NCBI GenBank assembly: GCA_036479435.1
Contig: JAZGFI010000069.1
Span: 1-13,123 of the forward strand
Direction of reading: 5' to 3'
Length of the DNA stretch: 13,123 nt
DNA from: Planctomycetota bacterium
Lineage (GTDB): Bacteria; Planctomycetota; GCA-002687715; DRQF01
Part shown: piece after piece, positions 1,162 through 6,316 of the stretch
How the letters are laid out: each line of letters opens with the position of its first letter
Position numbering within the stretch: position 1 is the stretch's first letter
The notes under the pieces: model-generated
What the model saw: the letters and a program-made list of their open reading frames with translations, nothing else
The model's database searches: none
Told to the model about the DNA's origin: nothing
Translations under genes and position numbers: made by a program

Positions 1162-3879
1162 TTAGAGTTTCAAATCGTAAATAACGATGGCATTGGCGGC
1201 GTGGTCGGCAGCCGGGTTTTTACTGCGATGAAGCTGGACCGCCTGATCACGCGCGTTGTCATCGGGTTTGTACTTGGCATGCAGTTTTCTGTGCACCTCG
1301 GCTTGTTCGCGATTGCCGAGAGCGCGGTGGCACTGCATCAGGTTGAAGTGAGCCGAGAGGTTTTCGCTGTCCAATGCCAAGACCTTGGAGAAGGTCTCGA
1401 CCGCACGCAAGTAGTAGCCCCGGCGCTCGGCCTTGTCACGCGCTTTGCGGGCCCTCAAGAGCAGGGTGCGACCGAGCTCGTTCTGAACTTGGTAATCACG
1501 CGAAAAGTCAAAGCCACGTTTAGGAATGCGAGTGGCAAGCACTTTCTCGAAACTAGATATCGCGCGATCGAGGTAGCCGTTTTGGCGATCGATGAGACCG
1601 GTGAGCCAGTTGACGACCCAAGGCGTCTTCGTTCCTGCTGCGACTGCTTTCGCCAGCGCGGCACGAGCGTCTTCGATTCGTCCCTCTTTCTCGAACACTC
1701 GGGCCAGATCCAACCAGCCCTCTGATCGTCCCAATCCGACGACCTCGTGGAAGGCCTCGGAGGCTTGCCGCAACTCACCCTTACTGGCCCCGGAATTGCC
1801 TTTGCGAAACAGCCCGATGCCGTAGTCGCGCCAGCGTTGCCATGTCGGCTTCGCTGACGGCGTGCCGGCGGCGGCCGCCGTGACGTTCAGCACGACCTCA
1901 GATTCTGCCATCGTGGTCACCGGCATCTGGGGGACCGGGCCATCGTGGAGACCGCGCGCAGCGAGGTCATTATAGACATGCCCCATGTAGGTCTGGTCGA
2001 ACTTTCGGTAGCGGAGTTTGACCTTGGCCGTCACTCTTCCCGCAAGGTCTTTCGGCGCCGTGAATCGGTAGTGAACAACCTGGCCCGTACCTGGGGGTTG
2101 TTGATTGGAGTAGAGCGGCACGAAGATGTCCTGAGCGTTGCGGCGATCAACACGTTTGCCGCGGCGATCCAAAACGTAGCTGTTTAGAAAGTGCGACCAT
2201 GGATCGACGAACCCGTTCTCATCCGTCTGTCCCGAGCGTGCGAATTCCTGACCATTCGCCGCCATGCTGACCTCAAGCCACAGCTGATTACTATCCGAGG
2301 TCCCTTGCGTAAAGACGTGCCCGACCTTTTGCGTGCGCACCACGACTTCGAGCAGATAGCTCTTCCCCGCTTCCAGCATGACCGGGACATCGCCGAGGGG
2401 CGCGATCAGGTCGCCCGTAATCGTGCCGCCTTTGCGCAAGGCAAAGATGTCGACGCTGACTTGGCCGTCCTTCAGGAAGTCCGACTGAAGTTTCTGCTGA
2501 TCAAAAAGCCCCTTCATGAAGGGAATCGCCGTATTAGAACCCGGAAAGCGGTGGTCGTGAATCTTCCCCTCCACGGCCCCGAAATCTTCGCTGGCGATGC
2601 GCGGCATGTGGCATTCGTTGCAGTTCGGCTCGGCGAGATCGGGGTAATAGAAGCTTCGTGATCCATTCCCCGACACACCCGACAACAAAAAATTGTCCCA
2701 GTGGTTCTGGCCCCGGAGCCACTCTTTGTAGTGATTAAGTTCGTAGGGAAGGCTCACCTTGTGGCAAGTCGCACAGAACTCTCCTGTTTTGTGGAGCGGT
2801 TTCAGAAAGGTCTTTTTGTGAAAGGCGGGCTTGGCCTTTACGAGCTGATGATTCACCCACTTCAAGAACGGATTATCGGAGTAGGCGAAGGGGTAGTGAA
2901 GCGGCTCCTCAATGGTGTAATTGCCATTGCCGATGGTGCCGTGGACGTCGACGATCGCGTGGCACACGGTGCAGGTGATTCCCTCGTTCGCCGTGGGGTC
3001 GTTGACGTCGTCGAAGTTCGGATCGTCAAAAGCGCCGCTGAAGAAGGGGACGGGATCGTGGCAACCGGCGCAAAAACGTGCACCCTGCACGTTGCCATCG
3101 CGTTTCATCAGTTCCGCTCGGGTTTCTCGCACACTGAATAGATACGGCGGATTGTTGAAGGAGCTGAGGTGATGAACGGATTGATAGTGCTGATCAAAAG
3201 CGTCGGGATGGCACTCTTGGCAGTAGCGGTCCATCATCAGAGATTCGCGCGGGATGAATCCCAAGGTCGAGGTGCGAGACTCCGAAGGGTAAAAGTAGGC
3301 CTCGCCTCCCCCGCGCACGTTCCACAGCCGCGGATCTTGGCCGTGGAATGCCACCATCCCCCCGGACACCAAGGCGACGCTTACGCCGTAGCAAATCCCC
3401 CATTTCCACTTGATACGAGGTCCGTAGAGCCGGTGAGCGACGTAGGCAAAGATTGCCACCACCGGCAGCAAGACGTGAAGCCAGTAGCTGAGGCGGCCAC
3501 CCAAGGAATCGAGAGGTACAACGCGCACCGTCATGACGATGCCGGTCAAGATCACACCGACACAGGCGGCAAACAATCCGTGGCCGAGGTTAACGGCCTT
3601 GCGGTTCCTTCGACGCCAAGTGTTGCGCATGTGAAACGCAGCGAACGCCAAAAAAGGCAAGGTCAACAACAGCCCCAGCGCCAGATGGAACAAGAACATG
3701 AAGAGATAGAATTGGTTTTCGAAGTTCGCGTCTCGAAGGAAGCCAAGAAGAGAGATGCCACCGAGATAAACAGAGTTAGCACCGAGCAGAGCAATCCCCG
3801 CCGCCAAGGCGTAAAAGAGCTTCCTAAGACCTGGAGTTAGGGCAGGCCGTGCTTTTCTCTTGACTCCCTCAATCGACAT
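1162..3879 (-). CDS. Membrane-bound multiheme c-type cytochrome (5 CxxCH) with N-terminal 5-TM domain and C-terminal TPR region, 905 aa
   Basis: CxxCH at aa 220 (CQECH), 270 (CAGCH), 303 (CTVCH), 369 (CATCH) and 420 (CNECH, followed by MP...HDHRFPG). Five hydrophobic segments in aa 21-179. TPR-like helical repeats at the C-terminus (WLDLARVFEKEGRIEDARAAL, LTGLIDRQNGYLDRAISSFEKVL, AHFNLMQCHRALGNREQA). Lies 22 bp upstream of the CRTAC1-like gene. Confidence 0.9.
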   Translation of the reverse strand: MSIEGVKRKARPALTPGLRKLFYALAAGIALLGANSVYLGGISLLGFLRDANFENQFYLFMFLFHLALGLLLTLPFLAFAAFHMRNTWRRRNRKAVNLGHGLFAACVGVILTGIVMTVRVVPLDSLGGRLSYWLHVLLPVVAIFAYVAHRLYGPRIKWKWGICYGVSVALVSGGMVAFHGQDPRLWNVRGGGEAYFYPSESRTSTLGFIPRESLMMDRYCQECHPDAFDQHYQSVHHLSSFNNPPYLFSVRETRAELMKRDGNVQGARFCAGCHDPVPFFSGAFDDPNFDDVNDPTANEGITCTVCHAIVDVHGTIGNGNYTIEEPLHYPFAYSDNPFLKWVNHQLVKAKPAFHKKTFLKPLHKTGEFCATCHKVSLPYELNHYKEWLRGQNHWDNFLLSGVSGNGSRSFYYPDLAEPNCNECHMPRIASEDFGAVEGKIHDHRFPGSNTAIPFMKGLFDQQKLQSDFLKDGQVSVDIFALRKGGTITGDLIAPLGDVPVMLEAGKSYLLEVVVRTQKVGHVFTQGTSDSNQLWLEVSMAANGQEFARSGQTDENGFVDPWSHFLNSYVLDRRGKRVDRRNAQDIFVPLYSNQQPPGTGQVVHYRFTAPKDLAGRVTAKVKLRYRKFDQTYMGHVYNDLAARGLHDGPVPQMPVTTMAESEVVLNVTAAAAGTPSAKPTWQRWRDYGIGLFRKGNSGASKGELRQASEAFHEVVGLGRSEGWLDLARVFEKEGRIEDARAALAKAVAAGTKTPWVVNWLTGLIDRQNGYLDRAISSFEKVLATRIPKRGFDFSRDYQVQNELGRTLLLRARKARDKAERRGYYLRAVETFSKVLALDSENLSAHFNLMQCHRALGNREQAEVHRKLHAKYKPDDNARDQAVQLHRSKNPAADHAANAIVIYDLKL

Positions 3880-3897
3880 TTCGGCAATCCCAACAAT

Positions 3898-3903
3898 ATC
3901 TTA
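3898..3903 (-). promoter_or_regulatory. Possible -10 element (TAAGAT) upstream of the cytochrome gene
   Basis: TAnnnT hexamer in a locally AT-rich patch, 18 nt upstream of ATG 3879. No clear -35 element. Confidence 0.25.
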
Positions 3904-3993
3904 GAACGGGGCACAGCGCCCTCAAGCATCGTCGTCCTTGACCACCAGCTCGGTGGAGCCCTAAGCAGGGAATCGTCGGGATTCCGTGGAGCC

Positions 3994-4734
3994 CTATGAA
4001 AGCTTGTGAGCGTCGATCTGCTTCAGCACTTCCTTGGTAGGAAGGCGTTCATTCAGATTCTCGCCACGGTACATCCACAAGACTATGCCCTCGCGGTTCA
4101 AGAGAATCATACCTGGCGCGAGAATCTCATGTTCAACCTGCCGTGGTGAGTCTTCATGGACAAAACCGAAAGCCCTCCCCAGTGATAGTTTGGGGTCGGA
4201 GATGGCCTTTAGAAAAGGAAACTTCTCACTGGTGGCCTTGGTCGTCTGCACTCGATCAGCCGAGACTGCAACGATCTTGACACCGCGCTTTTCAAACTCT
4301 GACTTATTGGCTTCGAACTCACCGAGTTCGATCAAACAGTAAGTTCACCATGAGCCGCGGAAAAGCACCAGAAGCGTTGTTTCATTGGTCGCAAGTTGGG
4401 CGAGACCAAAGGGCTTCCCGTCCGCATCCAAGGAACTGAACTTTGGCAAGGTCTCCCCGACTTTCACCGGACCGTCGTACTCGGGAAGATTCATGCCAAA
4501 GAGCAGCATGATGCAAACGGCGATCGGGATCAGCGCCGCGCCGAAGCCAAAAAACTTCCACATGGAAAAGCGGCGAGCCATTGAAGCCAAGGCGAGGATT
4601 GGTGGGCCGAAGGCCAACCAGCCCAGATAGGACGGCGTGCTGAGGTCGTGTTGGCTTACCCGCCAGGAGTAGTAGCCTAGAGCCAGCCAAGGTGACAGAA
4701 TACCGATGGCAAAGATGATTCGATCGAGTTTCAT
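3994..4734 (-). CDS. Selenocysteine-containing peroxiredoxin-like / AhpC-TSA family redoxin (U-T-Y-C motif, Sec130) with 3 N-terminal TM helices, 246 aa
   Basis: ORF-track ORFs 4345..4734 and 3994..4335 share one frame (741 nt in total). The junction reads TTC CGC GGC TCA TGG TGA ACT TAC TGT TTG = F-R-G-S-W-*-T-Y-C-L, matching the redoxin F-x-RG-x-W-C-x-x-C motif with UGA (4345-4347) at the first Cys. The upstream half has the redoxin start (KVGETLPKFSSLDADGKPF); the downstream half has the rest of the fold (GVKIVAVSAD, SDPKLSLGRAFG, PGMILLNREGIVLW). A SECIS-like hairpin follows the UGA. Confidence 0.88.
4302..4344 (-). promoter_or_regulatory. Putative bacterial SECIS element
   Basis: mRNA after the UGA: ACUUACUGUUUGA-UCGAACUC-GGU-GAGUUCGA-AGCCAAUAAGU. 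Perfect 8-bp inverted repeat (4324-4331 / 4313-4320) around a G-first GGU loop that begins 21 nt after the UGA, with a possible lower stem ACUUA/UAAGU. Confidence 0.75.
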
Positions 4735-4739
4735 CCTCA

Positions 4740-4748
4740 GTTATAGCA
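4740..4748 (-). promoter_or_regulatory. Possible extended -10 (TG-C-TATAAC) for a leaderless redoxin mRNA
   Basis: Minus strand reads TGC TATAAC TGAGG ATG, so the hexamer is 5 nt from the ATG. GAGG abuts the ATG and is too close to serve as a Shine-Dalgarno. Confidence 0.35.
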
Positions 4749-4768
4749 AGCACAGCCCGGAGGAAAGA

Positions 4769-6316
4769 ATGCACTCTGAGACACTTGGATTCGATGCAAA
4801 GGGGCTTTTCGTTCCCAGATCCCGCGGTCACGCCCACCGAGCCACAATCCACCTCTTCAGCCGCCTCGCCTTCATTTCTGTGATCCTGCTGTCTAGCGCT
4901 CTCCCCGGCCAAGCCCAGGGGCCTTGGCGGCCCGAAGTTGAGGCCCTTCTCAATTCGATGACCCCCGAGCCGCGGGGAGAACAACCTGGGTTTCCCGGCT
5001 TTGCCGCTGCCGTCATCCACCGCGGAAAACTTTCCTTTGTCGGCACTAAAGGGATGGCGAACCTCGAGCACCAAGTTCCAATCGGATCGACAACCTCTTT
5101 TCGGATTGGCTCGACTTCGAAACAATTCACGGCCACCGCCATAGCCCTACTTCACCTCGATGGCGACATTAAACTCGACGACCTACTCACCAACCACTTC
5201 CCCAAACTCGCACAAGCCGCGCCAGGGGTCTTGATCAGCGATCTCGTTCACCACACCAGCGGTATCACCGACTATCTCGTGTTGGCGTTCCTGAACGGGA
5301 ATTCCGATCAGGACATCTACAGCGTCGAAGACAGCTTTTCTCAACTCTGCCAGCAACGCGACTTGATGTTTGAACCGGGCACGAAGTTCTACTACTCCAA
5401 CTCCAACTATTTCCTGCTATCCCTGCTGGTTCAACGAATCTCGGGGCAATCGTTGGCTGACTTTGCCGCGAAGCGAATCTTCAAGCCGTTGGGCATGAAG
5501 AACTCCCGTTATCGCAAAGCCTACGACGAGATCATTCCGAACCGAGCCCACGGCTATCGACAAACTAAGGCCGCGTGGCGCATTGCCAATACGCAGCTCG
5601 ACCATACGGGCGATGGCGGAGTCTTCACGACGATCGAAGACCTCGCCAAATGGGACGCCAACTTCTACGACAACAAACTCGGCCACGGCAAAGCCCTCAT
5701 CGACCTTTTGCAGCGCCGCGGGTGCTTGCGAAACGGCGACCCACTGGACTATGCCTTCGGGTTAGTCGTCGATCGGCATCGTGGAAGACAGCGCGTCGCG
5801 CACGGTGGGGCCTTCGTGGGTTTTCGCGCCGACTACGTTCGGTTTCCCGAGCTTGAGACATCCGTGGTCTGCTTGGGCAACTATGCCCGCAGCCGCGCGA
5901 GTATCATCTGTTCGTCCATCGTCGATATTGTCTTGCGAGACAGTTGGGAACCACTCGAGAAGCGTAAGCAACCTTCGCAGCCGTTTCGCTCTCACACCAA
6001 AGCCCCGCCGCTGCCAGATCCTAAACCCCAGCCGCGGACAGCTAGCCCCATGGCGAGCTACAACGGCGAATACGTTTGCGAAGCATTGCGTGTTCCCTGG
6101 ACAATTGAGGCAATCTCCGACACGCCCCTTCCAGGTCTACGGTTTGTCATCGGTCACAACCGCATCCAACTCTCACGGGCGCGGGGAGACCATTTCGGCC
6201 CCGAAGCATTCCGTTGCCTATTCCGTCGCAATCAACACGGTGACGTAACGGGATTCGGCCTTTATTCGGGCCTCGGATTCCCCTTCGAGTTCAAGCGAAA
6301 GGACAAGACCTCATGA
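4769..6316 (+). CDS. Secreted serine hydrolase, beta-lactamase class C / D-aminopeptidase-like (peptidase S12) family, with Pro-rich linker and small C-terminal beta domain
   Basis: SxxK (FRIGSTSKQFT), LVHHTSG, YxN (FEPGTKFYYSNSNY), IFKPLGMKNS, GDGGVFTTIEDLAKW and HGGAFVGF motifs; signal-like segment LAFISVILLSSALPGQAQ. Start moved from 4706 (which overlaps the divergent gene) to ATG 4769, preceded by GGAGG. Confidence 0.9.
   Translation: MHSETLGFDAKGLFVPRSRGHAHRATIHLFSRLAFISVILLSSALPGQAQGPWRPEVEALLNSMTPEPRGEQPGFPGFAAAVIHRGKLSFVGTKGMANLEHQVPIGSTTSFRIGSTSKQFTATAIALLHLDGDIKLDDLLTNHFPKLAQAAPGVLISDLVHHTSGITDYLVLAFLNGNSDQDIYSVEDSFSQLCQQRDLMFEPGTKFYYSNSNYFLLSLLVQRISGQSLADFAAKRIFKPLGMKNSRYRKAYDEIIPNRAHGYRQTKAAWRIANTQLDHTGDGGVFTTIEDLAKWDANFYDNKLGHGKALIDLLQRRGCLRNGDPLDYAFGLVVDRHRGRQRVAHGGAFVGFRADYVRFPELETSVVCLGNYARSRASIICSSIVDIVLRDSWEPLEKRKQPSQPFRSHTKAPPLPDPKPQPRTASPMASYNGEYVCEALRVPWTIEAISDTPLPGLRFVIGHNRIQLSRARGDHFGPEAFRCLFRRNQHGDVTGFGLYSGLGFPFEFKRKDKTS

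Follow-up and report, generated by a model that had tools for sequence, protein, structure and literature searches.

A probable UxxC selenoprotein redoxin with a predicted three-helix membrane anchor, annotated as two fragments in a Planctomycetota genome

The window analyzed here, a 13,123-nucleotide stretch of DNA from a Planctomycetota bacterium (contig JAZGFI010000069.1 of assembly GCA_036479435.1), carries at positions 3994–4734 on the minus strand a single gene that annotation has mis-split into two open reading frames (ORFs). The overall explanation that we consider very likely is a redoxin with selenocysteine (Sec) in a UxxC motif, produced by decoding of an in-frame UGA and held in the membrane by three N-terminal helices. 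The 246 codons would then be translated as one chain, the UGA at 4345–4347 being decoded as Sec by the organism's own SelA, SelB, SelD, and tRNA-Sec with the help of a hairpin 14 nt downstream. The product would be a three-helix membrane-anchored protein with a thioredoxin fold, belonging to the AhpC-TSA/Redoxin superfamily and having a U130-x-x-C133 redox center. If selenium were short, ribosomes would stop at the UGA, and a 129-residue stub in the membrane would be the product. A single 246-residue Sec130 enzyme had been proposed in an initial annotation of this DNA, and the reading frame, the domain, the decoding machinery, the conserved UGA column, and the conservation downstream of it all speak for that proposal.

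The gene runs from an ATG at 4732–4734 through 246 codons to a TAG stop at 3994–3996, and an in-frame TAA lies three codons 5′ of the ATG. Within this minus-strand frame (4734 to 3994), there is exactly one stop, a TGA (4345–4347 on the minus strand, TCA on the plus strand), which stands at codon 130 in the motif F-R-G-S-W-[TGA]-T-Y-C and, read as Sec, occupies the first position of a U-T-Y-C redox motif. A table-11 ORF list accordingly contains two pieces, 4345–4734 (129 residues) and 3994–4335 (113 residues, from an internal TTG start). That the two share one frame, with a UGA at the first-Cys position as their sole break, had been stated in the initial annotation, and we re-derived it from the sequence. 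When the frame is translated through the UGA, the Pfam families AhpC-TSA (PF00578; 66.4 bits, 2.9e-18, residues 92–220, against a gathering cut-off of 26) and Redoxin (65.4 bits, 6.5e-18, residues 91–229) both match across codon 130. Neither ORF piece is therefore the whole domain, which bears out the earlier view of each as an incomplete thioredoxin fold. Among the eight other long ORFs of the window, TGA serves as the normal terminator in three and is internal in none, so genome-wide reassignment of TGA, which we considered and ruled out, is not the explanation.

The immediate surroundings of the gene are as follows. Directly adjacent to its ATG, with zero spacing, is a GAGG. The listed ATG of a divergent β-lactamase-family gene (PF00144; 4706–6316, plus strand), at 4706, would give a 29-nt overlap with the selenoprotein start. 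A second in-frame ATG, at 4769, follows 5 nt after a GGAGG and seems the more plausible start; with it, 34 nt would remain between the start codons of the two divergent genes. Downstream of the selenoprotein gene and on its strand, after a gap of 114 nt from its stop to the next start, come a 905-residue TPR-repeat protein (1162–3879, minus) and an FG-GAP/VCBS-repeat protein (3–1139, minus). The neighbors in the window are thus the TPR protein and the divergent β-lactamase-family gene, then a DUF547 gene and others, with no cytochrome-maturation gene among them. When the larger flanking ORFs (52 of 80) of nine ortholog loci were compared by Pfam, no neighbor conserved across families was found that would point to a substrate or partner; shared neighbors (DUF2058, pnp, and smpB) occur only in three genomes of one family (L021, L023, and L024). 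In those three, the ortholog adjoins a same-strand DUF2058 gene and lies near pnp (polynucleotide phosphorylase) and smpB, an arrangement seen neither in the window nor in the other families. A scan of 3700–5000 picked up three promoter-like sites, all weak and none usable, and nothing resembling a terminator, and a search for RNA runs containing the stretch found none.

The column of the UGA was compared across relatives. The read-through protein was searched in 61 genomes, namely the window's own and 60 relatives, and each of the six best non-self matches (E values from 2.6e-42 to 1.9e-17) contains exactly one TGA. We translated 24 loci and counted the 19 that have a W-[U/C]-x-x-C motif; the five motif-less loci (L033, L036, L037, L038, and L041), two of which (L037 and L041) have Sec at another, peroxidatic-type position, were excluded from later counts. 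Of these, 16 have TGA as the motif codon and 3 have a Cys codon, and the 16 TGA-bearing loci come from different genera and families. Within the window's order, full-length matches were found in 7 of 23 genomes, including the window's own, and all 7, which are also rows of the query profile, have TGA; no full-length Cys form was found among the 23 genomes searched. As a side observation, the same 23 genomes hold 37 redoxin matches at E ≤ 1e-12, and 22 of these have an in-frame TGA, comprising the 7 full-length orthologs and 15 other paralogs. Sec-containing redoxins seem to be abundant throughout this order.

Cys forms are found when the search is widened. A genome scan with a pattern ending in RGxWC gave 291 confirmed loci, and the 80 that were retained have TGC or TGT in every case, under a pattern that admitted Cys only. 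A profile search of 1.84 billion representatives returned 272 proteins at E ≤ 1e-30; among the matches listed, 124 of 148 new database representatives have C..C at the motif. Of these 148 listed representatives, 80 are 200–310 residues long with at least 95 residues N-terminal of the motif, and a crude hydropathy count places three or four hydrophobic segments before the motif in 62 of the 80. The anchored architecture would thus be that of a sizeable Cys-form family, with the window gene as its Sec form. The alternation of Cys and TGA in one column, which had been suggested as a check on the initial annotation, is what these comparisons give, and on the strength of the sequences the TGA at 4345–4347 almost certainly marks a Sec-decoding gene. 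Fragments ending or beginning at the motif also appear in the profile search (P0002, P0004, P0108, and P0134) and look like further Sec forms cut by gene callers. Separately, two long proteins from the search, P0006 (1430 residues) and P0129 (1280 residues), have five separate redoxin-profile matches each and are apparently tandem multi-redoxin proteins.

The UGA is followed by a SECIS-like hairpin, UCGAACUC-GGU-GAGUUCGA (4313–4331, minus strand). Its 8-bp stem begins 14 nt from the UGA and its GGU loop 22 nt from it. The 60 nt after the UGA have a fold z score of −1.29, and 23 of 200 shuffles are equally or more stable. Because this fold is not significant alone, the case for the hairpin rests on comparison across homologs. 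A hairpin of 6–8 bp lies at the same place in all 16 Sec forms and in none of the 3 Cys forms found alongside them. We then set fixed criteria: a stem of 6 bp or more, G as the first loop nucleotide, and a loop start 15–28 nt from the codon. A hairpin of this description occurs in 14 of 16 Sec forms and in 0 of 83 Cys forms; most of the latter come from a single related subclade, so they do not count as independent controls. The hairpins of the other two Sec forms (G017 and G007) have loops of 4–5 nt. When one stem register is imposed on all 16 Sec forms, about six of which use a register shifted by 1–3 nt, 73% of cells are paired, compared with 23–49% for slid partners. None of 500 shuffles reaches the covariation score of 0.281, slid partners giving at most 0.136, and both-sided changes occur in four of seven stem pairs.

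Two further points affect how this hairpin is viewed. The stem sequence coincides with the codons of a conserved E-L-x-x-L peptide, and since GAG CUC is self-complementary, part of the stem complementarity could be due to that peptide. In addition, Rfam at gathering score gave no matches over the whole window, SECIS families included, so that no curated SECIS family applies. In bacteria, the SECIS stem-loop sits within a characteristic distance window from the UGA. The element here has the form expected of a bacterial SECIS, that is, a stem-loop after the UGA with a G in its apical loop, the conserved G being described in a figure legend of PMC1794560.

A gene of this kind implies the means to decode it, and the initial annotation had predicted that the genome would encode selA, selB, selC, and selD. 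The assembly, which comprises 299 contigs and is 92% complete, contains selA (526 bits), selB (323 bits; cut-off 242), selD (372 bits), and a tRNA-Sec (67 bits; anticodon TCA by ARAGORN), all over their curated cut-offs, and the prediction was correct in full. The selA, selD, and tRNA-Sec(TCA) genes are clustered on one strand of a single contig (C117:33648–36236; loci L009, L010, and L012), and selB lies apart from selA and selD, on C237. The selD gene has one in-frame TGA; with TGA read as U, SelD has the sequence S-S-G-G-U-A-A-K near its N terminus and is a selenoprotein itself, which argues that the Sec system is in use. The same genome has a second hidden selenoprotein, a Bcp/PrxQ-like redoxin (C185:14319–14729, plus strand; locus L130:560–1090). 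Its motif, Y-F-Y-P-R-D-D-T-P-G-U, places the TGA at the peroxidatic Cys position, and its T-P-G-U stands where the peroxidatic Cys of PrxQ proteins typically lies; the TGA that follows is probably a true stop. SelD and this PrxQ-like gene are the selenoproteins confirmed here beyond the window gene.

If the UGA is read through, the codons beyond it should be under constraint, and the possible decay of the downstream half had been raised in the initial annotation. In 10 anchored Sec forms, Arg126, Gly127, Trp129, Sec130, Cys133, Leu137, Asp180, and Arg230 are invariant, and Pro97, Leu121, Val123, Phe124, Ser158, Asp160, Asp180, Pro207, Gly216, and Arg230 are at least 90% conserved in 58 sequences. 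Strain variation tells a similar story: all four differences upstream of the TGA in one strain are synonymous, and of nine coding differences downstream of it in a minor strain variant, seven are synonymous and two non-synonymous. Small as these numbers are, they point to purifying selection on both halves; with Asp180 and Arg230 invariant, there is no sign of downstream decay. The TGA is also supported by reads, a second concern of the initial annotation, in that contigs from runs of three studies (X1, X4, and X2), one of them possibly the source of the assembly, carry it without a change. Run X8 covers 4572–4850, a stretch outside the TGA. The record of a co-occurring minor strain variant in run X2 (record 5; window 3900–4159, depth 17.6 of 59) shows 21 differences together with an insertion of 1 nt at 3989, which lies in the 3′ untranslated region shortly after the stop codon.

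Two explanations that dispense with Sec have to be weighed against these observations. The locus could be a pseudogene whose TGA arose by a recent nonsense mutation (TGC or TGT to TGA) or reflects a sequencing error. A Cys codon is indeed one substitution away from TGA, and public protein collections hold the gene as two unnamed fragments, with no full form of near length; a homolog search at near length gave 914 candidates, none at E ≤ 0.001. The initial annotation had stated that selenoproteins of this class are often mis-annotated as split genes or pseudogenes. Neither a new mutation nor an error accounts for a TGA shared by the 16 loci of different genera and families, for a hairpin confined to the TGA forms, for invariant residues and mostly synonymous strain variation downstream, for the same TGA in contigs of three studies, or for the complete Sec machinery in the genome. 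We regard a pseudogene as highly improbable. Alternatively, the gene callers could be right in recording two genes, one for a 129-residue membrane protein that the TGA terminates and another for a 113-residue protein that starts from the TTG at 4335. However, a single Pfam domain crosses the junction, as does one compact thioredoxin fold modeled with high confidence; the 113-residue piece would have neither the active site nor the first strands, and the Cys-form homologs are single uninterrupted proteins with the same length and layout. Two separate genes thus have, in our judgment, a very small probability, and the discussion below takes the locus as one Sec-decoding gene.

The redox domain (residues 91–229; 4048–4464, minus strand) has, by Pfam and by an AlphaFold2 (AF2) model, a thioredoxin fold of the AhpC-TSA/Redoxin type. 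The model, built from a 58-sequence alignment, has a mean pLDDT of 86 and a pTM of 0.78, with pLDDT mostly 90–98 across this domain, and it places Sec130 just before or at the N terminus of a helix spanning residues 131–142. Among solved structures, the family profile matches Bcp (2cx3, 3.2e-24), ResA (4nmu, 8.9e-19), and TlpA (1jfu, 2.8e-10), and Foldseek with the AF2 model ranks peroxiredoxins best, with a target-normalised TM-score of up to 0.87 (for Bcp4, 3hjp) and further hits to AhpE and Prx1. In the alignments, Sec130 occupies the column of the first CxxC cysteine of ResA and of the Ser in the Bcp S/TxxC. The resolving partner in the UxxC motif is Cys133 (TGT; 4336–4338, minus strand), whose counterpart is the peroxidatic Cys in Bcp and the second Cys of CxxC in ResA. 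Pro207 (CCA; 4114–4116, minus strand) stands at the thioredoxin-type cis-Pro position and aligns with the corresponding Pro of ResA; in the alignment to 2cx3, it falls in the column of what we take to be the catalytic Arg of Bcp, and Arg126 falls at the position of the Bcp Pro. These assignments presume the catalytic roles of the aligned Bcp and ResA residues.

From these alignments, the protein is peroxiredoxin-like by fold and Pfam family, with a redox center of the thioredoxin type, UxxC plus cis-Pro. The term “peroxiredoxin-like” in the initial annotation therefore stands for the fold and the family, but not for the catalytic layout, which is that of thioredoxin and ResA. By analogy with ResA/TlpA-type oxidoreductases, it is quite likely that Sec130 would act as the attacking nucleophile, in the manner of the first Cys of CxxC, and would form a selenenylsulfide with Cys133. 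That the product reduces oxidized thiols or peroxides in the envelope and is recycled by a DsbD/CcdA-type transporter is a proposal to which we would give about even chances. A DsbD_TM-family protein is encoded in the genome and could be the electron supplier for the redox domain.

N-terminal of the redox domain, the AF2 secondary structure has three helices within residues 3–79 (3–27, 34–53, and 59–79; 4498–4728, minus strand), which are predicted to form a membrane anchor and which we read as three-pass. The initial annotation had made no mention of this anchor. The loop between helices 2 and 3 (RRFSMWK) is positively charged, and it is K/R-rich in all 10 aligned Sec forms; under the positive-inside rule, a K/R-rich loop before helix 3 would put the redox domain outside. 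In most related Cys forms and in two Sec forms (L031 and L032), the anchor is replaced by a signal peptide, in many cases with a lipobox Cys. The redox domain thus probably faces the periplasm or the exterior. In a Kyte-Doolittle profile (window 19, threshold 1.6), helix 3 alone is clearly detected in the window protein and two to four helices in several relatives, and the pLDDT is 55–69 over residues 21–60; helices 1 and 2 are accordingly supported by the AF2 model and by relatives with the same arrangement, and the three-pass topology and the outward orientation are features that we infer.

Even for a genuine selenoprotein, function and orientation could differ from those we prefer. The enzyme could be mainly a peroxidase rather than a protein-disulfide reductase, with Sec130 oxidized to selenenic acid and resolved by Cys133 in the manner of GPx or a peroxiredoxin. 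In favor of this, the reaction of Sec with peroxides is fast, peroxiredoxins (Bcp, Bcp4, AhpE, and Prx1) give the strongest matches by sequence and by structure, and Cys133 aligns with the peroxidatic Cys of Bcp; because the nearest solved structures of the fold are peroxiredoxins, such chemistry has to be kept in mind. Yet the residues of the peroxiredoxin active site are replaced, Arg126 standing for the Pro, Sec130 for the Thr/Ser, and Pro207 for the Arg, and UxxC with a cis-Pro is the layout of thioredoxin and ResA, so that we think a mainly peroxidatic function rather unlikely. As to orientation, the redox domain could be cytoplasmic if the N terminus were outside or if one helix spanned the membrane and the other two were peripheral. 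The strict hydropathy threshold passed by only one helix and the low model confidence over residues 21–60 would fit such a topology, as would three UxxC relatives (L034, L040, and L045) that have a soluble N-terminal helical extension and no signal peptide. The K/R-rich loop of the aligned Sec forms and the signal peptides, many with a lipobox Cys, of the related Cys forms and of L031 and L032 point the other way, and we consider a cytoplasmic domain unlikely. We prefer an anchored thiol oxidoreductase with an outward-facing redox domain.

How does this protein relate to known systems? UxxC selenoproteins of the AhpC-TSA family are, as the initial annotation stated, a recognized class: the main texts of PMC13188914 and PMC9312934 catalogue them as Prx-like thiol:disulfide oxidoreductases (PF00578, UxxC/UxxU), predicted with high confidence and of unclear function. 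Table 2 of PMC2398784 lists 225 Sec and 2,740 Cys sequences of “Prx-like 1” in GOS data, and the main text of PMC1794560 gives the Prx-like thiol:disulfide oxidoreductase class in 8 genomes. The window protein shares with this class the Pfam domain and the UxxC Sec motif; going by its sequence, with PF00578 over the gathering score and Sec in UxxC, the gene is a member under the operational definition of the class. It differs in having an additional N-terminal anchor of three helices and ~80 residues. A term search of the main texts of the four papers (PMC13188914, PMC9312934, PMC2398784, and PMC1794560), whose supplements may list such forms, gave no mention of a membrane anchor in the Prx-like class.

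Comparison with individual families places the protein between several of them. With ResA, TlpA, and CcmG it has in common a thioredoxin fold behind a membrane anchor, in its case a predicted one. The W-C-x-x-C of ResA and TlpA aligns with W-U-x-x-C, as does the cis-Pro, the difference being Sec for the first Cys, and the ResA anchor is single-pass, in contrast to the three predicted helices here. The scores fall under the curated cut-offs for both ResA (NF002854, 35.8 versus 170) and TlpA (NF047696, 24.9 versus 230). Bcp/PrxQ and AhpE (2cx3, 3hjp, and 1xxu) are the best matches in sequence and structure, and their peroxidatic Cys aligns with Cys133, but their active-site Pro, Thr/Ser, and Arg are Arg126, Sec130, and Pro207 in the window protein, and they are soluble, whereas it is predicted to be anchored. 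The active site of peroxiredoxins proper (P-x-x-x-T/S-x-x-C plus a distal Arg) is absent, and NCBIfam peroxiredoxin models give 18–26 bits against cut-offs of 140–301.

No NCBIfam model reaches its cut-off for the window protein. The best match is the SelL-related redox protein NF040769, with 55.5 bits over residues 95–191, the N-terminal part of the redox domain; with a cut-off of 120 bits and 100 of 173 profile positions matched, the protein is not a member by the NCBI threshold, and the Cys-form relatives likewise match this model below its cut-off. Eukaryotic SelL is a UxxU protein, in distinction to the UxxC found here. SelL is termed “a Prx-like protein” in the text of PMC2398784.

By these comparisons, the gene is an ordinary new member of a known bacterial selenoprotein class. 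What is modestly new is probably its combination of a membrane-anchored, probably envelope-facing architecture with a thioredoxin-like active-site layout. Knowledge of Sec decoding itself is left unchanged by the gene. Its analysis corrects the annotation of a locus that public collections hold as two unnamed fragments, with no full form of near length. It also extends the catalogued UxxC Prx-like selenoproteins by a predicted membrane-anchored member whose redox domain probably faces the envelope. A more far-reaching idea, which we offer as a distinctly long shot, is that the three-helix module would be, instead of a passive anchor, a conserved functional partner of the redox domain, for example by docking a quinone or a DsbD-like donor, so that the protein would form a self-contained membrane redox module that has been upgraded with Sec in this lineage. 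If true, these polytopic envelope redoxins would make up an uncharacterised family whose Cys form is widespread and which offers natural Sec/Cys pairs. More generally, because many Cys-form relatives have the same architecture, the family may provide natural Sec/Cys pairs for asking what selenium gives to envelope thiol oxidoreductases.
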